Source: Alphaproteobacteria bacterium (GTDB lineage Bacteria > Pseudomonadota > Alphaproteobacteria > RF32 > CAG-239). From it: a stretch of 64,000 nt of DNA. Shown one piece after another: positions 43,123 through 59,609 of the stretch. The notes under the pieces were generated by a model. It was given only the letters and a program-made list of their open reading frames with translations, ran no database searches and was not told the DNA's origin. The position numbers and the translations under genes were made by a program. The stretch's first letter is position 1. Each line of letters opens with the position of its first letter. The stretch covers positions 5,882 through 69,881 of the forward strand of contig JAGBHO010000016.1 in assembly GCA_017935485.1 (NCBI GenBank), in the 5' to 3' direction.

Positions 43123-43323
43123 ATTTTTTCTCCTAATAAATAGTGTTATTTTATGTTTTGTATATTACATTATTTTAAGAGTATTTGCAAAAATAAAATC
43201 AAAAAAAATGATGCTTTTTTATAAAAATTTGTAATTTTTTTACGAATTTTAAATAAAAGTATTGATTTTTTTGCTTTTTATTTCTATATTTTGATTACAA
43301 ACAACAACTGCCGGAGCAAAAAA

Positions 43324-44604
43324 ATGGCTAAAGTAAATTTATTAAGAGTTAAATTTGCAAATATCTTGTCGTTTAAAGATGAACAGGAAATATTTTTTAC
43401 AGCGGAATCTAAATATAGCAATACCCCGACATCTTATATTAGAAGAGTTAATGCTATTGGAGATGATTTGATTACTCCTGTTACTGCATTTTATGGAGCC
43501 AATGCTTCCGGAAAGAGCAATATTGTTAAAGTGTTTAATGATATTGTCTTGCCTTTGTTAGGAAAAACAGATAGTAAACCATCATTTGAATTTTATAAGC
43601 CATTTTTATTAGATGACGAATCTGCATCAAGACCATCATCTATAGAAATAGACTTCTGTCTTGATGATATTAGATATATTTTATCATTTAGCTTTGATAA
43701 AACAGGAATACTGACAGAAAACTTAACAGAATATCAGAATAAAAATAAAAAAGTCATTTATGATAGAGTTGAAAGCAATATTTACAAACCATACAAAGAA
43801 ATTATATCAAAATTTGATATTAAATATATAGAAGATTCTTTAGGCAAAAGACAGGATTTACTTGTTCTTGATATTTTGGATACAAGAGGAATTTCTTATA
43901 TTCATAATATTTTTGAGGCCTTAAAAGATATTTGTAAGGTTACTTTTATAAATATCTTAGAAACAATGTTTAATATGGATAGCTTGGCAGAAAAGATTTA
44001 TCAGGACAAATCCTTGCATAAGAAAGTTGTTGAGTTAATTAAATATGCAGATTTGGGAATTACAGATATTAAAGTTGAAGAAGAAAAAGATTCATCTGCA
44101 CTACCTTTTACTACCTCTCCAACCGGAAAACATTATAAAATTAACTTTGAACATATTGGGGTAAACAATAAAAAGTATGAATTACCTATTTCTTCAGAAA
44201 GCTGGGGAACTGGGCAGTTTGCAAAATACTTGGTTATGTTTGTTCCAATTTTAGTTGGTGGTGGAATTTATATTATTGATGAGCTTGAAGAAAAGTTACA
44301 TCCGATGATGCTGGCTAAAATTGTTGAGATGTTTAATAACCCCAATATTAATATTGGTGGGGCACAGCTTATTTTTACCACTCATAATACTTCCATCCTT
44401 AAATCAAATATTCTCAAGAGAGATGAAATTTGGTTTGTTGAAAAGAATGAAGAAGGATGCTCTGAGGTTTATCCTCTAACTGAATTTAAGGCTATCAGAG
44501 AAGGCTTTAATTATGAAAAAGGCTATTTAGAGGGCAGATTCGGAGCAATTCCATATTTGGGAGATATTAATGAATTAGCTAATATTTTGGAAGCAAAGGA
44601 ATAG
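43324..44604 (+). CDS. RloA-like / AAA_21 ATPase
   Basis: FYGANASGKSN, ESWGT signature, IIDELEEKLHP, QLIFTTH, RDEIWFVEK, YLEGRFGAIP. Confidence 0.88.
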   Translation: MAKVNLLRVKFANILSFKDEQEIFFTAESKYSNTPTSYIRRVNAIGDDLITPVTAFYGANASGKSNIVKVFNDIVLPLLGKTDSKPSFEFYKPFLLDDESASRPSSIEIDFCLDDIRYILSFSFDKTGILTENLTEYQNKNKKVIYDRVESNIYKPYKEIISKFDIKYIEDSLGKRQDLLVLDILDTRGISYIHNIFEALKDICKVTFINILETMFNMDSLAEKIYQDKSLHKKVVELIKYADLGITDIKVEEEKDSSALPFTTSPTGKHYKINFEHIGVNNKKYELPISSESWGTGQFAKYLVMFVPILVGGGIYIIDELEEKLHPMMLAKIVEMFNNPNINIGGAQLIFTTHNTSILKSNILKRDEIWFVEKNEEGCSEVYPLTEFKAIREGFNYEKGYLEGRFGAIPYLGDINELANILEAKE

Positions 44605-44607
44605 CTA

Positions 44608-45264
44608 ATGGTTAGTTTAGATAGAAAAAATAGGCACAATAGAAAAGAAAGAAGTGCTGCCAAAATGGTTATTTTTACCGAAGGTGATGTAACTGAACCT
44701 CAATATTTAACTGATTGGATTAGAAATTTTGCTGCTAAAAATGGTGTAAATCATATTAAAGCTATGACTAAATTTGAAATTGTGGCTTCAAAATATGAAT
44801 CAGAACCCTTAAAAATTGTTGAAAATTTAATTGAAGCAAAGAATCCAGCAAAAAATTATTTAGATACTTTTTATGCTGTGTTTGATGAAGATGATAGAAG
44901 CATAGGAGGGAAAGATAAAGAGAATTTTGACAAGGCTTTTGAGGAAGCAAAAGACAATAATATCAAAGTTATTTGTTCCAATCGGTCTGTTGAATTATGG
45001 GCTTTGATGCATTTTTCAGATAAAACTCCAACCACAAAAAATGATTTGGAAAAAGAATTAAAAACATATCTTCCTCAATACAATGCAAAAACTAACAAAA
45101 AGTTTGATATAGCTTTGATGCTGGTTGATAATAATGAGGATAAAGCCATAGTAAGAGCTAAAAGGTTGAGAAAAAACAACTCCCAATTAGGTGATTGGAG
45201 AATAAGACCATCTACCAATTTTGATGAATTAATTGAAGCAATGAGAGATTTTGTTAGGAGGTAA
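44608..45264 (+). CDS. RloB-like (TOPRIM-fold) protein
   Basis: IFTEGDVTEPQYL, AVFDED, SNRSVELWALMHF, PSTNF; 3 bp downstream of the ATPase. Confidence 0.85.
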   Translation: MVSLDRKNRHNRKERSAAKMVIFTEGDVTEPQYLTDWIRNFAAKNGVNHIKAMTKFEIVASKYESEPLKIVENLIEAKNPAKNYLDTFYAVFDEDDRSIGGKDKENFDKAFEEAKDNNIKVICSNRSVELWALMHFSDKTPTTKNDLEKELKTYLPQYNAKTNKKFDIALMLVDNNEDKAIVRAKRLRKNNSQLGDWRIRPSTNFDELIEAMRDFVRR

Positions 45265-48149: not shown

Positions 48150-48713
48150 ATGGCAATGATATTTAATTATATACGAGTCTCTTCAATTGAGCAAAGCACA
48201 GAACGACAACTAAAAGATGTCACTTGTGACAGAGTGTATGAAGAAAAAATTAGTGGTAAAGATACCAATCGTCCTCAGTTACAAGCAATGCTGGCAAATA
48301 TTAGAGCAAACGATATCATTAACATACACGAGATGAGTCGCTTGGCTCGTAACACTCGTGATTTATTAAATCTTGTAGAAGAAATAACCTCAAAAGGAGC
48401 TACTATCATTTTTCATAAAGAAAACCTGACTTTTAAGGGAAATGAAAAGCAAGACCCCTATCAAAAAATGATGATGGTTATGTTAGGAGCTGTTGCAGAG
48501 CTTGAAAGGGCTATTCTATTAGAAAGACAAAGAGAGGGTATTGCAATAGCAAAAGCTAAAGGGAAATACAAAGGTGGAAAAAACAAACTAAGTAGTGAGC
48601 AAATCACTGAATTAAATAATATGCATAATCAAGGAATGCCAATTTCTTGGATTGCAAAACAATTTAAAATCACTAGACCTACAGTTTACAGTTATTTGAA
48701 AAAAGATGGTTAA
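48150..48713 (+). CDS. resolvase-type small serine recombinase
   Basis: YIRVSSIEQSTERQ, EKISGKDTNRPQL, SRLARN, ERQREGI, C-terminal HTH. Confidence 0.93.
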   Translation: MAMIFNYIRVSSIEQSTERQLKDVTCDRVYEEKISGKDTNRPQLQAMLANIRANDIINIHEMSRLARNTRDLLNLVEEITSKGATIIFHKENLTFKGNEKQDPYQKMMMVMLGAVAELERAILLERQREGIAIAKAKGKYKGGKNKLSSEQITELNNMHNQGMPISWIAKQFKITRPTVYSYLKKDG

Positions 48714-48725
48714 TGCACTATTTCT

Positions 48726-49322
48726 CTAATCTTTATGTTGATTTATAAATCTTCTAATAGTGCTTCTATCAACCTTAAACATTCTGGCTATTTGGGTTTT
48801 AGGGATATTTTGTTCAGCAAGTTGTAGGATTCGTTCTTTGTTTTTCTTTAAATCATTGAATGCACTTTTACGACCAAAAGGACGACCAAGGTGCTTTCCT
48901 TCTGCCTTAACTCTTTTTAGAGCTTCTTTTGTTCTTTCAGAGATGAGCTGCCTTTCTATCTCTGCAGCTAAACTGAAAGCAAAAGCAAGAACTTTACTCT
49001 GGATATCTGAACCAAGACGATAGTTCTCTTTTAATGTCCATATTTGACACTCTCTTTCTAAACATTCTTTTAATATTCCCATAACTTCTAATAGATTTCT
49101 ACCAAGACGACTTAGTTCTGATGCAATTAAAACATCTCCTTTTTTTAATTTTTTGAGTAATTTGCCGAGTTTTCTTTCATTTAGAGGTTTTCTTGAAGAT
49201 ATTTTTTCTTCTACCCACTTATTAATTTCTATATCATTTGCTTCACAATATGTTGAAATTGCTAATTTTTGGTTTTCTAAGACCTGAGTTTGTGTGCTAA
49301 CCCTTATATATCCATATATCAT
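48726..49322 (-). CDS. Mpi-family DNA invertase (serine recombinase)
   Basis: MIYGYIRVST, SELSRLGRNL, YRLGSDIQSKVLAFAFSLAAEIERQLISERTKEAL resembling Bacteroides Mpi. Confidence 0.85.
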   Translation of the reverse strand: MIYGYIRVSTQTQVLENQKLAISTYCEANDIEINKWVEEKISSRKPLNERKLGKLLKKLKKGDVLIASELSRLGRNLLEVMGILKECLERECQIWTLKENYRLGSDIQSKVLAFAFSLAAEIERQLISERTKEALKRVKAEGKHLGRPFGRKSAFNDLKKNKERILQLAEQNIPKTQIARMFKVDRSTIRRFINQHKD

Positions 49323-49386
49323 ATTCAATCCTTTTAAAATATTTATCAGATTGAACAAAAATACATAAAAAAATAAGCGAGATAAT

Positions 49387-49544
49387 TAATTCACCAATTA
49401 ATTATCTCGCTTTTGATATCATACAAATTAATCTAAAATAATCAATTAGAATCTTATATTATGCTTTGAAAATAAGCATATTCTAGCAAAATTAATGTTT
49501 TAAATGAATATTCCCTAAAATAGGGTGGGTTAATTGGTGAATTA
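49387..49544. repeat. 15-bp inverted repeat pair (candidate invertible segment)
   Basis: TAATTCACCAATTAA at 49387-49401 and TTAATTGGTGAATTA at 49530-49544. Confidence 0.7.
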
Positions 49545-49549
49545 GCCCA

Positions 49550-50635
49550 TTGTTAGAATGTATAAATAATATATCACTATCAGAAAAAGAAATACCTTTA
49601 AATACTCAAGTAAAGGGATGGAATTTACATACTCAAATTTACAATTTAGAAGATTATAAAGAAGATATAACAGCATCAAATGATGAAAATATTGACATTT
49701 TAGAGCAAGATATTGAAAAACTTAGTCCTTTTTTATTAAAAATCTTGCTTCAAGATAAGACAACTGGAAAATACATTCGTTTTGCTTGTGATGAATATGC
49801 CAAATATGGAGAAGCCTATACTGCTGAAAAAGAAATACTTCCGGAACTTATTACCAAAGATAACACTAGAATAATCCAACCAAGAATATCAAAAACCAAA
49901 GATGAACAAATAAACAGAACTCGTAAATCGGCTGAGGTTTTTACTCCTTCTTGGATTTGTAATGAAATGAACAACCATTGTGATGAAGAATGGTTTGGTT
50001 ATTCCAATGTATTTAATACCCCAAATGGTCACGATTGGATACCAACAACAGAACCTATACAATTTGCAGAAGATAAGAAAAGCAAAAAAGAAGGTTGGAT
50101 GAAATATGTTGATTCAAAAAGATTAGAAATAACCTGTGGTGAAGCACCTTATCTTGTTTCCAGATATGACACAACTACCGGAGAGTTTTTGCCAATAGAG
50201 AAAAGAATTGGTCTTTTAGATAGAAAACTTCGCATAGTTAATGAAAATACAACAAATGAAACAGATTGGTTTAATTGGGCAAAACGAGCATATGAAGCCA
50301 CTTATGGCTATGAATACCAAGGAGATAACTTGCTTTTAGCAAGAGAAAATCTTCTTTGGACATTTATTGATAATTTTAAATTCAAACACAAAAAACAACC
50401 AACACTAACACAAATCAAACAAATAGCCAATGTAATTGCGTGGAACATTTGGCAGATGGATGGGCTTACAGATACAGCTCCTTTTAGCGATTCCAATGAA
50501 GATGACAGTCAATTAGAGCTTTTTAGCGATTTACCAAAAGTTTTAGAACCAATGCTTTGCAAAATAAAGGATTGGCGAAGCGATAAAGTTTTTTATTTCC
50601 AAGAAATAAAGAAAGGAAACAAAAATGAAATTTGA
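49550..50635 (+). CDS. R-M methyltransferase N-terminal half (SAM-binding part)
   Basis: AEVFTPSW, LEITCGEAPYL, YGYEYQGDNLLLAR, NIWQMDGL; TTG start uncertain. Confidence 0.78.
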   Translation: MLECINNISLSEKEIPLNTQVKGWNLHTQIYNLEDYKEDITASNDENIDILEQDIEKLSPFLLKILLQDKTTGKYIRFACDEYAKYGEAYTAEKEILPELITKDNTRIIQPRISKTKDEQINRTRKSAEVFTPSWICNEMNNHCDEEWFGYSNVFNTPNGHDWIPTTEPIQFAEDKKSKKEGWMKYVDSKRLEITCGEAPYLVSRYDTTTGEFLPIEKRIGLLDRKLRIVNENTTNETDWFNWAKRAYEATYGYEYQGDNLLLARENLLWTFIDNFKFKHKKQPTLTQIKQIANVIAWNIWQMDGLTDTAPFSDSNEDDSQLELFSDLPKVLEPMLCKIKDWRSDKVFYFQEIKKGNKNEI

Positions 50636-51638
50636 TGTAATTATAGGAAATCCACCATATCAGGAAACCAGAGAAAATACTTCTGATGGCCCAGTTTATG
50701 ATAGATATATGGATGAAGCATATAAATTAGCGAAAATTGTTGAGTTAATTACACCAGCAAGATTCTTATTTAATGCAGGACGAACTCATAAACATTGGAA
50801 CAAAAAAATGTTAAATGATGAATATTTTAATGTATTACGATATGAACCTGATAGTAAAAAAATATTTTCCAATACAGATATAAAAGGTGGAGTAATCATA
50901 TCTATAAGAAATAGCAAAAAGAAAGTTGGAAAAATTGAAGTTTTTACTTCTTATCAAAAATTAAACTCTATTTTACATAAAATGAAAAGAGAATCTTACG
51001 ACAGTCTATCTTCTATAATGTATCCTTATTCGACATATTCTCTTAATGAGGAATTATTTTGTGATTTTCCTGAACTTAAAAACATTCTCAGTAATTATAA
51101 AATAATAACAACCAATATATTTGACTTATTATCTATGCTTTTTGTTGATGAACCTAAAAATAAAGAAGAATTTTGCTGTTTATTAGGACGTCAAAACAAT
51201 CAAAGAGTTTTTAAGTATATAAATAAAAAATATATAAATACAGGAAATAATTATACTAAATATAAAGTAATTATTCCTAAATCTAATGGTTCAGGAACAT
51301 TTGGAGAAAATTTATCATCACCATTAATAGCTGAACCTTTTATAGGATATACTCAATCATTTTTAGGTATAGGTGCTTTAAATACAATATATGAAGCACA
51401 ATCACTAATCAAATATATTTCATCAAAATTTACACGAGCTTTGCTTGGTATATTAAAAAGCACTCAAGATAATCCTCCTGAAAAATGGAAATATGTCCCC
51501 CTTCAAGATTTTACTGAAAATTCTGATATTGATTGGTCTAAATCTATACACGAAATAGATTTACAGCTCTATAAAAAATATGGGTTATCAGAAGAAGAAA
51601 TTCAATTCATAGAAACAAAAGTTAAACCTATGGAGTAA
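50625..51638 (+). CDS. Eco57I-type N6-adenine MTase catalytic part plus target recognition domain
   Basis: MKFDVIIGNPPYQ, ITPARF, DIKGG; C-terminal VPLQDF...LYKKYGLS. Confidence 0.85.
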   Translation: MKFDVIIGNPPYQETRENTSDGPVYDRYMDEAYKLAKIVELITPARFLFNAGRTHKHWNKKMLNDEYFNVLRYEPDSKKIFSNTDIKGGVIISIRNSKKKVGKIEVFTSYQKLNSILHKMKRESYDSLSSIMYPYSTYSLNEELFCDFPELKNILSNYKIITTNIFDLLSMLFVDEPKNKEEFCCLLGRQNNQRVFKYINKKYINTGNNYTKYKVIIPKSNGSGTFGENLSSPLIAEPFIGYTQSFLGIGALNTIYEAQSLIKYISSKFTRALLGILKSTQDNPPEKWKYVPLQDFTENSDIDWSKSIHEIDLQLYKKYGLSEEEIQFIETKVKPME

Positions 51639-51643
51639 GAACT

Positions 51644-54600
51644 ATGGCTAAAATCAACATTAAGACAAGTAAAAAAGTAATACCTATGTGTTATGCCTAT
51701 ACTACTCCTCAAATAGCTAGCCACGAAGGTTGGACTAAGATAGGCTTTACAGAACAAGATGTTGAAACTCGTGTTAGGCAACAAACCCAAACTGCTGATA
51801 TAGAGTATAAAATAGAGTGGAAAGCCAATGCTATATATGATGATGGTTCAGGAGATATTTTTCACGATACTGATTTTCATTGTTATTTGAAAAAAATTGG
51901 AATTGAGAGAAAAATAGGAACAGAATGGTTTCATATCCTACCTCAAACATCCAAGCAACGATTCGATGAATTTAGGGCAAATAGAGGAATTGCTCAAACA
52001 GATGTTGTAATAGAATATAAATTAAGAACAGAACAGCAAAAAGCTGTGCAGCAAGCAAAATCATATTTTCAACAATATGCAGATGATGAGCCTGAGTTTT
52101 TATGGAATGCAAAACCTCGATTTGGTAAAACTCTTTCAGCATATGATTTATGTAAACAATTAGATGCTAAAACAGTTCTAATAGTTACACATCGTCCAGC
52201 TATTGCAACCTCGTGGTATAGTGATTATGAAAAATTTTTTGGAACTCAATCTGGTTACTTTTTTGTTAGTCAGGTTGATACACTAAAAAACAAACCTTGT
52301 GTTGTAAAAAGAGAAAATTTACCACCCTCAGCAAGAAAATATATAGAATTTATATCATTACAAGACCTTAAAGGTGCAATAGATTTTGGTGGAAAATATG
52401 ACAAATTAAAGCATATTGCCCAATTAAAATGGGATTTATTGATTATTGATGAGTCTCACGAAGGTATTGATACATATAGGGCAGATATTGCTTTTGATAA
52501 TATAAAAAGGAAATATACTCTTCATTTATCAGGAACTCCTTTTAGAGCTTTGGCTAATTCAAAATTTGAAGAAAAAGCTGTATATAACTGGACATATGCT
52601 GATGAACAAAAGGCAAAAAAAGAATGGGATGAAACAAAAGAAGAAGAAAATCCTTATTCTACTCTACCTCAATTAAATCTTTATACTTATCAAATGTCTG
52701 AAATCATTAGAGACAAGCTACAAAAAGGTGCTGATTTTGATGATGATGGAGAAACAGAAAGCTATGCATTTGATTTAAATGAGTTCTTCATCACTAATTC
52801 AAATGGCTCATTCAAATATGATGCTGATGTAGATAAATTTTTAGAAGCATTAACCACTCAAGCAAAATTTCCATTTTCAACAGAAGAACTTAGAAATGAA
52901 TTAAGACATACTTTTTGGTTATTAAATCGTGTTGATAGTGCCAAAGCATTAGCAAAGAAATTGAAAGAACATCCAATATTTAGGGAATATGAAATAGTCC
53001 TAGTTGCTGGTGATGGTAATTTAGATGAGGATACAGAAAATCAAAAGTCCTTTGATAAAGTTGTAAAGGCAATCAAAGAAAATGACAAGACAATTACAAT
53101 TTCTGTTGGACAATTAACAACAGGAGTTACTGTGCCGGAATGGACTGCTGTATTAATGCTAAGCAATGTAAAAAGTCCTGCTCTATATATGCAAGCTGCT
53201 TTTAGAGCTCAGAATCCTTGTTTATTTAAATATGGACAACTGCAATTTCGTAAAGAAAATGCTTATGTATTTGATTTTGACCCTGCTCGAACATTAGTTG
53301 TTTTTGAACAATTTGCTAATGATTTAAATACAACAACTTCTGCAGGTAAAGGAAACATAGATGAACGCAAGCAAAACATCAGGGAGCTAATCAACTTCTT
53401 TCCAGTGTATGGTGAAGATGATGAAGGAGAAATGATAACCCTTGATGCCGAAAAAATTCTTACCATTCCTCGTAAAATTTATGCAAAAGAAGTTGTTCGT
53501 AAGGGATTTATGTGTAATTTTTTATTCCAAAATATCAGTAATATTTTTAATGCACCCAAAGAAGTTATTGATATAATACAAAATTTCACTCCTCAAAAAG
53601 AGCCTATCGGTGTTACATACGAAACAAAAGATAAACTCAATATTAATACTGAGGGAGAAATCGAATTGTCATCGGAAATGGTTATTGGTAAAGCTGCTGA
53701 TATATTTGGAGAAAAATTATATAATAATATTGAAGATGAACTAGTTAAAACAGTTGAAACCATAAAAGATGAAATTCAAAGTAAAAAAGAAGTCGATGAA
53801 ATTAAAGAAGATTTGAAAGAAAAATTTCATATAGGAACTTCGGCAATGATTGAAATTGCTAAAAAAGAATATGGAAAGGATTTAAGTAAATCAGCTCAAA
53901 AGAAATTGGTTCAAACATTAAATGCTGATGCCGAAAGGACTTTTGAAAAACAATTTGGTTCCTATAAAATTGATATTGAAAGACTTGAACGAGACCGCAA
54001 AATAGAAATAAAACAAGCTAAAAATGAAAAAGAAATAGCTGCTATTAACCAAAAATTTGATACAACTAAATCTGTTGTTGAAAATAATCTAGCTGAAACA
54101 TTAAAGAATTCAATTAACCAAGTTGTTCACGAAGCTGGTAAGACCATTGTAGAAATAACAGAAACAGACATTAAACAAAGAGAAAAGCAAAGTATTGAAG
54201 AAGGTGTTCGAGACCATTTAAGAGGTTTTTCAAGAACAATACCATCGTTTTTAATGGCTTATGGAGACGAAAATACAACATTAGAGAATTTTGATACAAT
54301 TATTCCAAATGAAGTATTTAAGGAAGTTACCAGCATAACTCTTGATGAATTTAGATTTTTAAGAGATGGTGGGGATTATGTAGATGATAAAACAGGTGAA
54401 ACAAAACATTATGCTGGAAATTTATTTGACCCAGTAGTCTTTAATGATTCTGTAAAAGAATTTCTAAATTTAAGAACTAAATTAAGTAATTATTTTGATG
54501 AAGAACAGATAGAAGATATATTTGATTATATTCCACCGCAAAAAACAAACCAAATCTATACTCCTAAAAAAGTTGTAAAAGAAATGGTTGATAATTTAGA

Positions 54601-54937
54601 AAAAGAATGTCCTGAATGTTTTGAAAATTCAGATAGAACTTTTATTGATTTATATATGAAATCAGGTCTCTACATTACAGAAATTGTAAAAAGACTATTT
54701 AATAGCAGTAATTTGAAACAAAAATATCCAAATGAACAAGAAAGATTAGAACATATTTTTGCAAATCAAGTTTATGGTTTAGCTCCAACAGAAATTATCT
54801 ATCGTATTGCAACTGCTTATATTTTAGGTTTTGATGAGAAAATGAGTATTGATAAACATAATTTAAGATTATTTGACACTTTACCTTCTGTTCAAAAAGG
54901 AACTCTGGAAAAAGATTTAGATAAGGTTTTTAAGTAA
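51644..54937 (+). CDS. restriction subunit: GIY-YIG/T5orf172-like nuclease, SF2 helicase and partial MTase
   Basis: YAY..WTKIGFT..EWF; NAKPRFGKT, IIDESHEG, LSGTP, QAAFRAQ; C-terminal QIYTPK, DLYMKSG. Confidence 0.83.
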   Translation: MAKINIKTSKKVIPMCYAYTTPQIASHEGWTKIGFTEQDVETRVRQQTQTADIEYKIEWKANAIYDDGSGDIFHDTDFHCYLKKIGIERKIGTEWFHILPQTSKQRFDEFRANRGIAQTDVVIEYKLRTEQQKAVQQAKSYFQQYADDEPEFLWNAKPRFGKTLSAYDLCKQLDAKTVLIVTHRPAIATSWYSDYEKFFGTQSGYFFVSQVDTLKNKPCVVKRENLPPSARKYIEFISLQDLKGAIDFGGKYDKLKHIAQLKWDLLIIDESHEGIDTYRADIAFDNIKRKYTLHLSGTPFRALANSKFEEKAVYNWTYADEQKAKKEWDETKEEENPYSTLPQLNLYTYQMSEIIRDKLQKGADFDDDGETESYAFDLNEFFITNSNGSFKYDADVDKFLEALTTQAKFPFSTEELRNELRHTFWLLNRVDSAKALAKKLKEHPIFREYEIVLVAGDGNLDEDTENQKSFDKVVKAIKENDKTITISVGQLTTGVTVPEWTAVLMLSNVKSPALYMQAAFRAQNPCLFKYGQLQFRKENAYVFDFDPARTLVVFEQFANDLNTTTSAGKGNIDERKQNIRELINFFPVYGEDDEGEMITLDAEKILTIPRKIYAKEVVRKGFMCNFLFQNISNIFNAPKEVIDIIQNFTPQKEPIGVTYETKDKLNINTEGEIELSSEMVIGKAADIFGEKLYNNIEDELVKTVETIKDEIQSKKEVDEIKEDLKEKFHIGTSAMIEIAKKEYGKDLSKSAQKKLVQTLNADAERTFEKQFGSYKIDIERLERDRKIEIKQAKNEKEIAAINQKFDTTKSVVENNLAETLKNSINQVVHEAGKTIVEITETDIKQREKQSIEEGVRDHLRGFSRTIPSFLMAYGDENTTLENFDTIIPNEVFKEVTSITLDEFRFLRDGGDYVDDKTGETKHYAGNLFDPVVFNDSVKEFLNLRTKLSNYFDEEQIEDIFDYIPPQKTNQIYTPKKVVKEMVDNLEKECPECFENSDRTFIDLYMKSGLYITEIVKRLFNSSNLKQKYPNEQERLEHIFANQVYGLAPTEIIYRIATAYILGFDEKMSIDKHNLRLFDTLPSVQKGTLEKDLDKVFK

Positions 54938-54949
54938 AAAGGAACTATT

Positions 54950-55285
54950 ATGCTATTTGAAGTATTGGGAGAAGATTTACGCAAACAGCTGTCTCATATA
55001 ACTAAAAATTTAAGAGGTGGTAGAAAATCTACTCTTTATATTGAGATATATGAAGATAACATTATTTTCGTGTATAGAAACATTGAAATGCCAATAAGTG
55101 TCTTAAATCATATAAGTGAAGAACATAAATTAAGGGCAATATACACTATTTCGGATTATGCATTACTACATAAATTAATTAAAAAATTTAAGAATTGTGA
55201 TAGCTACTTACTAGATTTCTATCCAAATTCTATTAGAATTCAGATAGGTAGTGTAAAATTTGAAGTATCTGCAAATTTACAGTAA
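54950..55285 (+). CDS. hypothetical protein
   Basis: AAGGA RBS; last gene of the R-M operon, before the terminator. Confidence 0.65.
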   Translation: MLFEVLGEDLRKQLSHITKNLRGGRKSTLYIEIYEDNIIFVYRNIEMPISVLNHISEEHKLRAIYTISDYALLHKLIKKFKNCDSYLLDFYPNSIRIQIGSVKFEVSANLQ

Positions 55286-55289
55286 CATA

Positions 55290-55321
55290 AAAGCCTCAAG
55301 GTTGTTTAATCTTGAGGCTTT
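55290..55321. terminator. bidirectional intrinsic terminator
   Basis: AAAGCCTCAAG...CTTGAGGCTTT. Confidence 0.75.
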
Positions 55322-55345
55322 AATTTTATCAATTAAACAAATTCT

Positions 55346-55972
55346 CTAATCATTAAATTCAGTCATTAAATTTTCTACATTGAATCCGATTGATTCTCTT
55401 ATGATATCTTTAATACTCAAATTATTGATTTTTGTTTTAGCATTTATATCAGCACCATAATAAATTAGTAATGAGGATAGGTATATCATATCATTATACC
55501 CAGCAATCATTAAAGGTGTAACATTAAACTCATTACCAATATTGGGGTTTGCTTGATTTTCTAAAAGAAAAATAGAAATTTCTTTTAGGTTTCGTCTAAT
55601 ACTTTGATATAAAATTGTTTCTTTATTTTTATCTCTCCAATTTATATTAAAACCTAAATTTAGCATTTTCCTTAATACAATGATTTTTTGAAATTGTCGG
55701 AGATGTGGATTACAAACAACAGCAGATGCTAAAGAATATCCATTTCTCAAATTTTGATTTAACATTGCTTTGTTTAGCATTTGAAGAAGTAAATAATATG
55801 ATTTACTTGTTAAAAAAATGTTGAATATGTTATTTTCTCTTTCTTTATAAAAATAAGATAAATCATCTACATCAATTAACTCTAATTCATCTTCTAAATA
55901 TCCAATATCTTTTCTATCTTCCCTTACTGCATTATCTATAATTCTTCTTGTATAATCTTTACCTTCATTCAT
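55346..55972 (-). CDS. ankyrin repeat protein
   Basis: GFNINWRD..ETILY, LLENQANPN, TPLMIA, LLIYYGADINAK. Confidence 0.82.
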   Translation of the reverse strand: MNEGKDYTRRIIDNAVREDRKDIGYLEDELELIDVDDLSYFYKERENNIFNIFLTSKSYYLLLQMLNKAMLNQNLRNGYSLASAVVCNPHLRQFQKIIVLRKMLNLGFNINWRDKNKETILYQSIRRNLKEISIFLLENQANPNIGNEFNVTPLMIAGYNDMIYLSSLLIYYGADINAKTKINNLSIKDIIRESIGFNVENLMTEFND

Positions 55973-55974
55973 TT

Positions 55975-56247
55975 TTACTCCTTAATAATAGAATTTTTTA
56001 ATATACCTAGCAGTTTATTTTGCCAATTTGACATCTGTTTTTCCTGATTTAATTTAAGATATAAGGTTAAAATAGATGCTATACTTGGATATTTGTTTTG
56101 GTAAACTAATGTTCCAAGGTAATTACTGCATTTATTTAAATATTTGCAGCTAAATTCACGAAAACTATTTATTTTTCCTTCTTTGATTAAATTATTTGCT
56201 ACATCTATGACTAAATTAAGTTGGTTATTCATTGTTGATTTATTCAT
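55975..56247 (-). CDS. small HTH-like protein (DUF6626-like)
   Basis: INSFREFSCKYLNKCSNYL resembles the S..EFS..WLG.S.SY pattern; AAGGA RBS. Confidence 0.55.
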   Translation of the reverse strand: MNKSTMNNQLNLVIDVANNLIKEGKINSFREFSCKYLNKCSNYLGTLVYQNKYPSIASILTLYLKLNQEKQMSNWQNKLLGILKNSIIKE

Positions 56248-56289
56248 TTATTTCCTTATTTGTGATAAATGTATTTATCATATTCTTAA

Positions 56290-56814
56290 GCCAAAACTCA
56301 CTACGTTTCGTTTTAGCTAGAAACTTCGCAATCACAGATTGCTTGTTTTATTTTTTTTAATTTATTTTTTTAGATTAATTAATGTATTTCAGTATTTTCG
56401 TTAGATTTGCTCTTTTTACCCAACTTACGAGGGTAAAAAAATATAGCATTTTCGTTGAGTTTGCTTTCTTGTTTTGGTTATAGTAAATTTCTTTACAACT
56501 CATACACCGCCAATATGAGCCTTCCACCTGCTTTTTCGGTTGGCACATTGTAAAATCCAAACAAGAACTAAATTCTACAATGCCGAGGTTGTCAAGGAGC
56601 ACAGACAGAGCCTCATTTTTCTAACTGACATCATCAGCCGTGTCCTATTTATATTCCGCCGACCGTCTTTGGAGGAGTTACTTTGCGGTGCTTACACCAA
56701 TGGGCAAGTCTTCATAGGTTTTCAGTTTGTTCCCTGCTTGAGGGTGCTCATAAAAAAGCCTGTTTCCCCGTTTTTGTGGCACAGATTATGAAATCTGTGA
56801 TTGGTATGTCATTT
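56290..56814 (-). ncRNA. candidate structured ncRNA or long leader
   Basis: GC-richer stretch inside the AT-rich island; several hairpins need G-U pairs available only on the minus strand; promoter TTGCAT-N18-TACTAT at 56850-56821. Confidence 0.5.
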
Positions 56815-57078
56815 ATTCTTATAGTATCATATTTGATTTTCTATATGCAAAATTATTCTGCTAAATTTATTTATTAAAAATGCCAGAAAAATTTTTATTT
56901 TTTCAAATCAGAATAACACACTGTTTTTACTTAATAAAAAAAATTTGCAGAAATTTGACTTTTAAAAACTTTTAATATATTATCTCGTCATTCAATGAGG
57001 TGGTTTTATCCTCTAACCCTTAAATTACATATCCATAAAATAGCAATTATAGTTTCAACTTTCATTTGAAGGTGTGCT

Positions 57079-57195
57079 ATGGATTGCCTTAATTATCAAA
57101 ATAAAAACTCAAAAAAAATAACTGAAGTTGGGGATGATGTTTTCCAACTATTGTTGATATTATTAGAAATTGAAATGCATAAACAGGTAAATTAG
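57079..57195 (+). CDS. 38-aa ORF upstream of the integrase (candidate directionality factor)
   Basis: GAAGGTG RBS; MDCLNYQNKNSKKITEVGDDVFQLLLILLEIEMHKQVN; its stop codon overlaps the integrase RBS (TAGGAG). Confidence 0.5.
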   Translation: MDCLNYQNKNSKKITEVGDDVFQLLLILLEIEMHKQVN

Positions 57196-57199
57196 GAGA

Positions 57200-58753
57200 A
57201 TGGATATGAAAGCTGTTGTTCTAGCTCGTGTATCCACCGAAATGCAAGAGGATGGATTCTCTTTAGATGCTCAACTGGATAGATTACGAAACTATTGCTC
57301 AATCAAAGGTCTGGAAATAGCAAAAGAATTTACTTTTGTGGAAAGTTCTTTCCACGGAAAAAGGACTAAATTTTATGAAGCAGTCAATTACATCAAACAT
57401 CAGACCAAATTAACAGCTCTTGTAGTTGATACTGTTGATAGGCTTCAACGAACTTTTAATGAATTCCCAATGCTTTTAGAACTTGTGAAGAAAGGAAAAC
57501 TTGCTCTTCATTTCTTCAAAGAAGGACTTGTGATTGATAAGAACTTTAAGAGTTCTGATTTGGCAATGTGGCAAATGCAAATTTTATCTGCAAATATGTT
57601 TGTTAATTCAACCAGAGATAATGTAAGAAGGTCTGAGGAAAGAATGCTTAAAGAAGGTTTACTTCCCGGTCCTGCACCTATTGGTTATTTAAATGTGAGA
57701 GATGAAAAGGGAAAGAAAACAATTATTATTGACCCTGAAAGAGGACCTATAATAAAAAAATTGTTTGAGGAATACTCAACTGGGCTATTCTCAATGGATG
57801 AATTGGTTAAAAAATCTAAGCAATGGGGATTAAAAAATCGTAAGAGTGGAAACCCAATGACAAAATCACAATTTGCAAGTGTTTTGCAAAATCCATTCTA
57901 TTATGGTGTGATGTTTTACAATAAAACTTTTTTTCCTCATATCTATGAGAAGCTTATTTCTAAAGAGCTTTTTGACAAATGCACAGAAATAAGAACAGGA
58001 AAATTCAAAAGAACTTCAAAACATACTAAAGAACCCTATATTTTTAGAGGATTAGTCCGTTGCAAATATTGTGGTTGCTTACTTTCTCCATACACTAAAA
58101 AAGGTAAGTATGTTTATTTAAGACATACAGAACTGAAAGATTGTGAGCATTGCACCAATGTTAGTGAGCAAATTATCTTGAACGAAGTTCATAAATCTCT
58201 TTTATCCATTAGTTTTGATGATGATTTAAAGGCTAGCTTAGCAACTCGTTTGAAAAAACAATATGAGATAACTCACGGAAGAACAAGTTATCAATTAGAA
58301 AAAAGCAAAAATGAATTGTCTGATGTTGAACAAAAACAGAAGAAACTTTTAGACTTGTTAATTGCAGAAACTATATCTGCTGAAGTATATCGTAGTAAAA
58401 ATGCTGAATATGAAATGCAAAAGATTGACTTACAAAATAAAATTCAATCATTGCAAGCTCCTGATACTTCTGTGGAGAGAGCTATTGATAAGGTATTGAA
58501 TTTTAGTCAAAATTCTTATGAGATTTTCAAAAGTTCGCAAATTGAAGAAAAAAGACGAATTTTAAATATTGTTTTTGCGAACTTTTTTATGGAAGGGAAA
58601 AATCCAGTTATTTCAATGAGAAAAAACTTCAACCTCCTATCAAATTTAGGAGGTTGTCAAGATTGGTGCCCTGGAGAAGACTCGAACTTCCACTGGCTGA
58701 GCCAACATGCACCTGAAGCATGCGCGTCTACCAATTCCGCCACCAGGGCATAA
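57200..58753 (+). CDS. large serine recombinase (integrase)
   Basis: ARVSTEMQ, DRLQR, PAPIGY, LQNPFYYG recombinase domain, CKYCG zinc ribbon, coiled coil; 3' end reads antisense through tRNA-Leu. Confidence 0.93.
   Translation: MDMKAVVLARVSTEMQEDGFSLDAQLDRLRNYCSIKGLEIAKEFTFVESSFHGKRTKFYEAVNYIKHQTKLTALVVDTVDRLQRTFNEFPMLLELVKKGKLALHFFKEGLVIDKNFKSSDLAMWQMQILSANMFVNSTRDNVRRSEERMLKEGLLPGPAPIGYLNVRDEKGKKTIIIDPERGPIIKKLFEEYSTGLFSMDELVKKSKQWGLKNRKSGNPMTKSQFASVLQNPFYYGVMFYNKTFFPHIYEKLISKELFDKCTEIRTGKFKRTSKHTKEPYIFRGLVRCKYCGCLLSPYTKKGKYVYLRHTELKDCEHCTNVSEQIILNEVHKSLLSISFDDDLKASLATRLKKQYEITHGRTSYQLEKSKNELSDVEQKQKKLLDLLIAETISAEVYRSKNAEYEMQKIDLQNKIQSLQAPDTSVERAIDKVLNFSQNSYEIFKSSQIEEKRRILNIVFANFFMEGKNPVISMRKNFNLLSNLGGCQDWCPGEDSNFHWLSQHAPEACASTNSATRA
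58630..58657 (-). terminator. island-supplied terminator for tRNA-Leu
   Basis: CAACCTCCTA...TAGGAGGTTG hairpin followed by AAGTTTTTT on the minus strand, just after the CCA end. Confidence 0.6.
58664..58749 (-). tRNA. tRNA-Leu(CAG)
   Basis: GCCCTGG acceptor stem, CATGC-TTCAGGT-GCATG anticodon arm, long variable arm, TTCGAGT T-loop, encoded CCA; promoter TTGACT-N17-TATAAG upstream. Confidence 0.97.
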
Positions 58754-58778
58754 CCGTAATTCGAAAACACTTATAAAC

Positions 58779-59609
58779 TCATTTTTTTAATAAGTCAATA
58801 TATCCGTACGAATTTAATAACAAAATTGTACCTAAAATGACACGATATATTACAAACGGCAGAAAAGTTGACTTTTGCAGCCACCACATAATGATATAAA
58901 TGGCCACAATTGATGCAATAAACGAATAAGTCACACCGTCAACTGCCAAAATCATCTCCTGAAAATCGCGCGATTCGTACAATTCGAATCCAATCAGGCC
59001 GGCCGCCCCGACAATTGCAGGAATCGCCAGCAGCATTGAAAACTTGGCAGCTTCCTTCCGCTCCAAACCCAAAAAACGCGCCATCGTAATCGTAATGCCT
59101 GAACGGCTGGTACCGGGAATCAGAGCCAGACATTGTGCCAATCCGATCAGCAAGGCGTCAATAACCCCCAAATGCTCAACTTTTCGAATGGTCATACCGG
59201 TACGATCCGCCGCAAACAGAAGCAAACCGAAACCTAAAATCGTCCATCCGATGATACGTGATCCTTCTTCATCCCGAAACTCAATCCCCATACTGCGCAA
59301 AAACAAGCCGAACAAGACCACCGGAATTGTCCCGAGAAAAATCAGCCAAAACAGACGGTTCCCCGGATTTTTAAAATCCGGAATAAAAAAGGTCTTCAAT
59401 GTTCCTTTAATCACCATCCAGACATCGGACCAAAAATAAATCACCACAGCGATAATAGATCCGAGATGTACGGCCACGTCCAAAGCCAATCCCTGATCGG
59501 GAAATATTGTAAATTGCGAAAACAAAATCAAATGCCCGGAAGAACTGACCGGCAAAAACTCAGTCAGTCCCTGCAATACGGACAACAATACGATATGCAA
59601 ATCAGTCAC
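58779..59609 (-). CDS. uppP: undecaprenyl-diphosphate phosphatase
   Basis: QGLTEFLPVSSSGHL, ALIPGTSRSGIT, AAKFS. Confidence 0.96.
   Translation of the reverse strand: MTDLHIVLLSVLQGLTEFLPVSSSGHLILFSQFTIFPDQGLALDVAVHLGSIIAVVIYFWSDVWMVIKGTLKTFFIPDFKNPGNRLFWLIFLGTIPVVLFGLFLRSMGIEFRDEEGSRIIGWTILGFGLLLFAADRTGMTIRKVEHLGVIDALLIGLAQCLALIPGTSRSGITITMARFLGLERKEAAKFSMLLAIPAIVGAAGLIGFELYESRDFQEMILAVDGVTYSFIASIVAIYIIMWWLQKSTFLPFVIYRVILGTILLLNSYGYIDLLKK

Follow-up and report, generated by a model that had tools for sequence, protein, structure and literature searches.

A large, intricately folded and conserved RNA-like element occupies the position of a probable Rep-like gene on integrative islands of gut Alphaproteobacteria

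Bacterial RNAs of great size and intricacy are few, and each class of them (RNase P, tmRNA, group I and II introns, OLE, ROOL and GOLLD) opened a field. The nearest precedent for an RNA in place of a replication (Rep) protein is RNA II of the ColE1/pMB1 plasmids, a transcript of about 500 nt that is made from a sigma-70 promoter toward an A+T-rich region, with a small helical protein gene downstream. Here we describe an element that would resemble RNA II in each of these respects, found on the minus strand of an A+T-rich genomic island in a 64,000-nt stretch of contig JAGBHO010000016.1 (hereafter the window), from the draft genome (1.77 Mb) of a gut alphaproteobacterium. The two have no sequence or structural likeness, the island RNA has pseudoknots and long invariant loops, and we found no antisense RNA I partner for it; it also differs in lying within an integrated element of an alphaproteobacterium. 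The original prediction, made from the letters of the window, had proposed a functional minus-strand RNA here, possibly a replication primer for an element without Rep, an antitoxin or regulatory RNA or a new large non-coding RNA class.

Other described systems share some of its features. ROOL, GOLLD and OLE are large, ornate bacterial RNAs (bioRxiv 10.1101/2024.12.08.627333). Like HEARO, they run to several hundred nucleotides, contain numerous covarying helices as well as pseudoknots, are often found on phages or mobile elements and had no known function at discovery; unlike them, the island RNA matches none of their Rfam models, is hosted by gut Alphaproteobacteria and has a defined operon position and an operator-flanked promoter. 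The intergenic origin of the Ff filamentous phages and the single-strand origins of rolling-circle plasmids are likewise non-coding blocks of about 500 nt with many strand-specific hairpins, with repeats and a hairpin near an A+T-rich stretch, in elements that have G2P-type HUH initiators; the island block, in contrast, excludes the HUH gene instead of accompanying it, and has its own conserved double-stranded promoter as well as pseudoknots. The CI immunity RNA of satellite P4 is a mobile-element RNA derived from an early-operon leader, with its specificity in short repeated segments, but it is only about 69 nt long, and its repeats, which lie in the same transcript, are complementary to it, whereas no such complement was found for the island RNA. 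The ARRPOF motif of Fusobacterium plasmids, an Rfam entry that is also large and RNA-like, lies in a region needed for plasmid replication; its hosts are unrelated, and the island RNA has no match in Rfam.

The module that contains the element, its conserved core and its predicted promoter are as follows.

56281-56820, minus strand: swapped module of 540 nt, present in RNA-bearing islands and replaced by an HUH open reading frame (ORF) in sister islands
56392-56810, minus strand: conserved core of the RNA, about 420 nt (39 distinct homologs, mean column identity 86%)
56821-56850, minus strand: predicted promoter, with -35 TTGCAT (56850-56845), an 18-nt spacer and an extended -10, TG-A-TACTAT = TGATACTAT (56829-56821); predicted start near 56814

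We aligned 39 distinct sequences over 455 columns with MAFFT (alignment A2), after removing duplicates, two chance matches and one locus cut at its end. The helices derived from covariation were tested together as one model of 15 helices and 90 pairs that includes three pseudoknots, and pairing was found in 98.7% of 3461 cells. Both partners changed in 44 of the 90 pairs (274 cells), versus 3-8 pairs (4-21 cells) in slid controls whose 3′ partners were moved by 1-3 columns, a comparison in which the model has an advantage, as the structure was derived from the same sequences, although MAFFT made the alignment without reference to the structure. None of 500 column shuffles came up to the model in percentage paired, in pair or cell count or in covariation score; the number of further pair types was unexceptional, being reached by 106 of the 500. 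Covariation among homologs was a check proposed beforehand, and it thus came out clearly for the structure, whose parts are listed here from the 5′ end of the RNA.

56696-56805, minus strand: pseudoknot 1 (helix 1), ACCAAU (56805-56800) with the hairpin loop AUUGGU (56701-56696); 100% paired, A-U to U-A swap in 3 of 39
56780-56799, minus strand: 5′ hairpin of 7 pairs (helix 2); 6 of 7 pairs with both-sided change
56732-56759, minus strand: two short hairpins (56759-56746 and 56744-56732; helices 3 and 4); 3 pairs with both-sided change
56691-56708, minus strand: hairpin whose loop makes pseudoknot 1 (helix 5); 4 of 5 pairs with both-sided change
56656-56688, minus strand: helix CCGC/GCGG around a conserved 25-nt internal region (helix 6)
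56624-56638, minus strand: hairpin GCUGA/UCAGU with a conserved UGAUG loop (helix 7)
56585-56614, minus strand: two-part helix GAGG/CCUC plus UGUC/GACA with an invariant loop inside (helices 8 and 9); 4 pairs with both-sided change
56546-56582, minus strand: long hairpin of 14 pairs (helix 10); 9 pairs with both-sided change
56466-56567, minus strand: pseudoknot 2 (helix 11), loop UUCUUGUU (56567-56560) with AACAAGAA (56473-56466); 99.4% paired, 4 pairs with both-sided change
56476-56528, minus strand: pseudoknot 3 (helix 12), GGU (56528-56526) with ACC (56478-56476); 2 of 3 pairs with both-sided change
56483-56521, minus strand: two adjoining hairpins (56521-56497, and 56496-56483 with a GAAA loop here; helices 13 and 14); 8 pairs with both-sided change
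56413-56439, minus strand: U/A-armed hairpin of 9 pairs between two repeats (helix 15)

Several stems had been drawn in the original prediction, and most of them are recovered in this model. The one at 56542-56584 is helix 10, with its 14 pairs, and the one at 56499-56519 is helix 13, with 8 pairs of which 4 show both-sided change; those at 56413-56439 and 56733-56744 are hairpins of 9 and 4 pairs. The stem at 56687-56698 gained no support, its innermost pair being open in 25 of the 39 sequences and none of its pairs changing on both sides; its bases belong to a different hairpin and to a pseudoknot. The stem at 56290-56317 recurs by eye as a hairpin in relatives, but lies outside the conserved core. 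Long unpaired runs of the RNA are invariant among the homologs, and positions 56661 and 56584 (CG 16, UA 14, UG 6) may form a further long-range contact. An alternative pairing of 56512-56510 with 56477-56475 was discarded, as it shows one-sided changes only.

The strand of the element is marked by its wobble pairs: read in the minus sense, the model contains 275 G.U cells versus 17 A.C cells across the homologs, which bears out the strand-specific G-U pairing that had been claimed from a few stems of the window. Alifold gave -160.4 for the minus strand versus -147.2 for the plus strand. The region also appears to be non-coding, as had been proposed: variable sites fall without bias on the three codon phases (80/81/72), 32 of 36 distinct indel runs have a length not divisible by 3, and the longest antisense stop-free stretch is not kept, varying from 51 to 128 aa over the 39 homologs. 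The GC content of 0.45 at 56500-56799, against 0.20-0.27 in the flanks, and a longest ORF of at most 83 aa agree with the GC-richer, ORF-poor stretch first described there. Taken together, sequence comparison shows that 56392-56810, read on the minus strand, forms the core of an RNA-like element that is conserved and highly structured, with 15 or more helices, three of which are pseudoknots; that the element is real, selected, strand-specific and structured is as secure as comparison can make it.

The sigma70-like promoter at 56850-56821, which a consensus scan of the window overlooked, is kept in homologs. An extended -10 (TGnTAnnnT) lies 15-24 nt upstream of the first conserved base in 34 of the 39; 30 of these also have TTGCR 21 nt further upstream, at a fixed spacing although the spacers differ, and 4 have the extended -10 alone, while the remaining 5 homologs have other upstream sequence. 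BLASTN over 61 relatives divided the 950-nt gap that separates the DUF6626 gene from the recombinase gene, inside which the structured RNA sits, into two modules: 56821-57199 moves with the recombinase, and 56348-56817 is found separately.

Near full-length copies of the RNA occur in 22 of 283 genomes of the order, one per genome, in 10 of 24 genera. No BLASTN-level match to the RNA was found in a sample of 400 other genomes of the class, and none in phage, plasmid and viral collections. A gapped pattern returned 26 metagenome loci, of which 24 were true homologs and 2 were chance matches (43-48% identity). Among public records, 12 pattern matches to relatives comprised, by title, 9 from uncultured gut Alphaproteobacteria, 1 from a ‘proteobacterium’ and 2 binned as Clostridia or Eubacteriales. 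Within the collections searched, the RNA was thus found only in one family of uncultured gut Alphaproteobacteria, where it is shown to be present in single copy on integrative islands that bear defence genes. Genomes of three genera (G000; G134:C4:36164-36614; G213:C4:68170-68620) carry the RNA module with 100% identity, a sign that this island type has spread horizontally very recently. The RNA marks out a defence-carrying island family in a poorly known, uncultured gut branch, with one island version identical in three genera. Two further homologs (L014 and L016) lie on short contigs (7.2 and 12.9 kb) of metagenome-assembled genomes binned as Firmicutes, and represent either a mis-binned mobile element or transfer beyond Alphaproteobacteria. 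The search for a circular or plasmid form found no terminal overlap in three small contigs, and the L014 and L016 contigs are not circular by that criterion. One copy (L042, G023:C50, 1501-1630; nhmmer E 6e-33) is truncated to its first ~130 nt.

An Rfam search, also proposed beforehand, left the idea of a new class standing. Against Rfam 15 (4227 models) at gathering thresholds, the whole window yielded only a tRNA-Leu, with RNA II unmatched; at E up to 10, 55900-57300 gave 5 noise matches of 12-18 bits, and five divergent homolog loci searched at E up to 1 gave only MicC (34 bits vs 90) and GEBRO (19.9 vs 284.7). Literature word searches and the searched supplement files of PMC8040213, a catalogue of RNA candidates from microbiomes, gave no description of the RNA, and the literature search found nothing in print on DUF6626. 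Large catalogues of RNA candidates may list the region without comment. Judged by Rfam and by the literature searched, the RNA would represent an undescribed class.

The setting of the RNA gives an unusually sharp functional clue, namely a junction-for-junction swap with a Rep-like gene under the same promoter and operators in otherwise similar islands, which also share its recombinase and DUF6626 genes. The genes and proteins concerned are these.

57200-58753, plus strand: large serine recombinase gene, divergent from the RNA (Pfam)
55975-56247, minus strand: DUF6626 gene, 90 aa (Pfam E 3.5e-9)
55346-55972, minus strand: ankyrin-repeat gene, last of the presumed operon (Pfam)
L006 639-1352 (minus), L072 858-1268, L080 1673-2221 (minus), L088 1939-2511 (minus), L096 1757-2461 (minus) and others: unannotated HxH-motif proteins of 129-237 aa encoded directly upstream of DUF6626 in sister islands

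Homology of the window to four sister islands (L005-L008) ends at 56280, which is 33 nt before the DUF6626 start, and restarts at 56821, just after the -10 element. L005 and L006 carry the same promoter, letter for letter in places, ahead of a 237-aa ORF. Since the promoter is shared and homology ends just past the -10, one promoter appears to serve a protein-coding operon in one island and the RNA in another, and this sharing in turn argues that the element is an RNA. PF20331 (DUF6626) occurs in 64 of the 283 genomes; 30 DUF6626 loci were returned and 27 analysed, and the slot directly upstream of DUF6626 on the same strand is taken up by the RNA in 8 of them, by an ORF of 129-234 aa in 17 and by something else in 2. 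Viewed from the RNA, a DUF6626 ORF follows on the same strand in 28 of 39 loci, 4 loci end too early and 7 are without it, as judged among the ORFs given to Pfam (50 of 90 listed).

The 17 slot ORFs and the L006 ORF fall into two BLASTP-linked clusters, and all 18 have an HxH-hydrophobic motif (18 of 19 slot ORFs). In the L006 family (A3) the HxH and YxxK motifs are invariant. Four ORF types gave sub-threshold matches to PF23343 REP_ORF2-G2P (E 3.6e-4 to 0.074), hhalign aligned the HxH and GW..Y motifs (best E 2e-4, for L088), and the L006-family model (predicted local distance difference test, pLDDT, 73) had IS200/IS605 HUH transposases as its top Foldseek matches (E 4.5e-3). Searches of PDB sequences with both protein profiles returned nothing relevant; an atlas lead also backs the HUH assignment. 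From these motifs and models, the slot ORFs are probably small HUH, rolling-circle Rep-like proteins. No HUH-like ORF was found in the genome of the window (tblastn, 19 queries), and Pfam placed no Rep family among the island ORFs, those of 537, 344, 361, 132 and 111 aa being without family. Nor did the HUH-bearing loci contain a fragment of the RNA, a similar sequence or the repeat. A rolling-circle origin accompanies its cognate HUH Rep gene, whereas here RNA and HUH ORF exclude each other from the slot (8 vs 17 of 27).

Promoter and RNA are bracketed by two operator-like palindromes.

56859-56876: palindrome O1 (TGCTAAAT-TT-ATTTATTA), just upstream of the -35, with 2 mismatches here; perfect and in the same place in L002, L005 and L006
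56263-56280: palindrome O2 (TGATAAAT-GT-ATTTATCA), perfect

At up to 2 mismatches, TGATAAAT-NN-ATTTATCA has only these 2 matches in 64 kb, versus 0.07 expected. The swap junctions with the HUH-bearing islands adjoin the two palindromes. In its model (pLDDT 93.6), the DUF6626 protein combines a long coiled-coil hairpin with a helical domain; its Foldseek matches to the P22 c2 repressor and to a designed DNA binder are local and weak (E above 1), and a VIA fold search was filled by coiled-coil matches and said nothing about the C-terminal domain. The sequence pattern of the helical domain, together with the weak local P22 c2 matches, suggests a Cro/CI-type helix-turn-helix regulator, and the two palindromes are probably its operators. 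The natural reading of this arrangement is a repressor-controlled operon whose first element is either an HUH gene or the RNA. In the window, the extended -10 promoter at 56850-56821 would drive an operon that begins with the RNA and runs on into the DUF6626 and ankyrin genes, and we consider it probable that the RNA is both operon-first and repressor-controlled.

The 3′ part of the module is built around a pair of direct repeats.

56446-56466, minus strand: direct repeat 1 (AAGCAAACUCAACGAAAAUGC), 21 nt
56392-56412, minus strand: direct repeat 2 (GAGCAAAUCUAACGAAAAUAC), 21 nt
56344-56391, minus strand: A-rich linker, poorly conserved
56290-56343, minus strand: two hairpins of the module 3′ part (56343-56328 and 56317-56290)

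Each repeat contains a variable 7-mer that is the same in both copies in 36 of the 39 homologs and comes in six versions (CGAAAAU, CGGAAAU, CUGAAAU, CUUGGAU, CGGAUAU and CGAUAAU); the two copies also share a 1-nt length difference and an AAA-to-AGG change. The twin repeats thus evolve in step across elements. Searches reaching 2.5 kb from 15 representative homologs turned up neither a complement nor a third copy of the repeat, repeat words of at least 9 bases occur elsewhere in the window no more than by chance, and no RNA column covaries with the repeat by base pairing, save one isolated hairpin-loop column that builds no helix. By eye, the repeat type follows neither the DUF6626 type nor the recombinase type. 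A role for the repeats as operators of DUF6626 was tried and dropped, because one repeat type accompanies both short and long DUF6626 forms that are 25-43% identical (by eye). Mimicry of a CRISPR repeat was also rejected, because the host repeat and the linker share only a 10-nt A+T-rich word that is not conserved in homologs.

Public RNA data were available from four runs, whose contigs over 54500-58800 have depths of 2-6 and are spread across the entire stretch. The one true metatranscriptome contributed 5 pieces, among them a 250-nt contig (56770-57019, 5 differences) that crosses the predicted start as well as the promoter. DNA carry-over could explain this contig, as could a relative's transcript from either strand. 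A hairpin just past the RNA (56328-56358) has its T-run on the opposite strand, as a terminator for incoming antisense transcription would, and a 16-pair hairpin in L003 (1467-1512) is arranged likewise; within the former, 56328-56342 scored as a terminator on the plus strand only. We rejected a small plus-strand countertranscript running from a promoter at O2 through the hairpin 56290-56317 to the terminator 56328-56342, because the wobble pairs of that hairpin agree with the minus sense, both here and in L020, and its -10 is a poor one. The search for an antisense RNA I of a ColE1-type primer left Rfam RNAI unmatched, and the promoter-like plus-strand sites at 56455-56484 and 56801-56830 have no matching terminator.

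With its 15 covarying helices, strand-specific G.U pairs, conserved and shared promoter, lack of a coding signature and lack of an Rfam family, the element answers to the functional minus-strand RNA, possibly of a new large class, that had been predicted, and we are highly confident that it is a real, functional structured RNA. The more specific idea of a replication primer for an element without Rep gained circumstantial support, in that the module occupies the exact slot of an HUH Rep-like gene and the genome has no such ORF; the antitoxin idea has no support, no toxin-like neighbour being conserved alongside the RNA. Modules that alternate at a single position of mosaic mobile elements under common control usually have the same function, and for this reason we favour, tentatively and at rather less than even weight, a new class of RNA that substitutes for the replication initiator of the island, with a role in the replication or maintenance of the excised island. 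On derepression, transcription of the RNA would run toward 56344-56466, with its twin repeats, hairpin and A+T-rich stretch, and the RNA would supply or control the function, as primer or origin, that the excised island needs to replicate and be maintained, as a functional stand-in for the HUH initiator much as RNA II replaces the Rep protein in ColE1 plasmids. A more novel form, which we regard as doubtful, is a protein-free replication initiator for an integrative element, in which an ornate RNA would do the job of an HUH Rep, either as a new kind of RNA-primed replicon that does not belong to the ColE1 family or, more boldly, by recognising and opening the site of twin repeats and hairpin on its own, with the co-evolving repeats as specificity determinants. 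If true, an RNA would be doing the job of a protein that starts DNA replication. Because the swap with the Rep-like gene is exact, the hypothesis that the RNA replaces an initiator is directly testable.

Several observations weigh against this replication role. It is argued from position, and the island may have another kind of Rep; the HUH assignment of the slot ORFs, likewise, lies below curated thresholds. Three pseudoknots and long invariant single-stranded runs exceed the known needs of ColE1-type primers, and the co-evolving twin repeats are left unexplained by the replication model. The RNA occurs with no DUF6626 nearby in 7 of the 35 loci with enough flank. In single-sequence folding the minus strand is modest in energy (z-score -1.79; 7 of 100 shuffles as good) and the plus strand does better (z-score -3.56). 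The public RNA data amount to thin contigs that give no verdict, so that transcription is a deduction from the promoter and its context, and downstream of the RNA there is no intrinsic terminator that would act in the sense of the RNA itself; the hairpins located there score as terminators for the opposite strand only.

The twin repeats and the invariant unpaired runs could be accommodated by a stable trans-acting RNA (a regulator, an immunity factor or a protein scaffold) that landed in the slot of a lost Rep gene, its element-specific repeats being twin recognition sites for a partner encoded elsewhere, such as a protein dimer or an RNA or DNA target. The near-universal identity of the 7-mers, with their shared length difference and AAA-to-AGG change, would follow from such sites, the long invariant runs suit a conserved binding partner, and the loci lacking DUF6626 indicate that the RNA can stand alone; yet no complement or third copy of the repeat turned up in the regions searched, no RNA column covaries with the repeat by pairing, the repeat type is independent of DUF6626 and recombinase type, and the exact replacement of the HUH ORF is left unexplained. 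We consider this account unlikely, if a serious contender. Guide RNAs such as bridge RNA, omega RNA or tracrRNA go with IS110, TnpB, IscB or Cas genes, and none of these was found among the neighbours of the RNA, which across loci are serine or tyrosine recombinase, DUF6626 and ankyrin genes. A cis-acting leader, that is, a very large riboswitch-like or sensor 5′ untranslated region controlling the DUF6626 and ankyrin genes, would fit the position of the RNA directly upstream of DUF6626 on the same strand (28 of the 35 loci with enough flank; 145 nt upstream here), with no own-sense terminator in between, and two identical segments would be expected from alternative pairing with one partner in an expression platform. 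We judge it improbable, since ~420 nt and 15 helices are far above the size of known leaders, neither a terminator/antiterminator pair nor a complement to the repeats was found, DUF6626 does not follow in the 7 loci mentioned and a 16-pair hairpin closes the unit in L003, and sister islands run the same genes from the same promoter without the RNA.

More improbable again is that the conserved structure belongs to single-stranded DNA, as the cis-acting origin region, with its repeats, nick hairpin and strand-specific hairpins, of an element of rolling-circle or filamentous-phage type whose own Rep was lost and which has one supplied in trans. G.T wobble would yield the same strand asymmetry, the order of repeat, hairpin and repeat followed by an A+T-rich stretch (56344-56466) resembles a Rep-binding and nick region, and relatives do encode HUH proteins. 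This account must, however, contend with a conserved double-stranded promoter at a fixed distance that drives a protein gene in sister islands, with HUH-bearing loci that have no similar sequence or repeat, with the lack of any HUH ORF in this genome to act in trans, with three covarying pseudoknots, which are unusual for DNA origins, and with an inter-repeat hairpin (56413-56439) whose loop is not conserved. Finally, a decaying protein gene or chance stems could be suspected from a 141-aa ORF on the opposite strand in L004 and from the modest single-sequence z-scores. That ORF is not kept, as the varying stop-free stretch indicates, codon phases are unbiased, indels are mostly not multiples of 3 and covariation is far above the controls, so that we give this explanation next to no credence and regard it as refuted as far as sequence comparison can refute it.

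The island itself extends from ~42.5 kb to 58.75 kb of the window and has a GC content of 24-33%, versus roughly 35-52% for the host, with a tRNA-Leu(CAG) gene (58664-58749, minus strand) at its end. Besides the genes listed above it carries the following cargo, which looks like defence genes.

43291-45264 and 48150-54937: AAA_21 ATPase and RloB-like protein pair; two adjoining small serine resolvases, one on each strand; then an ORF of 361 aa, a fragment of an Eco57I-type methylase and a ResIII helicase of 1097 aa

At the tRNA end, the last ~29 codons of the serine recombinase ORF are read from the antisense of tRNA-Leu(CAG) (58664-58753), which suggests that the island has its attachment site within the 3′ end of the recombinase gene that it carries.

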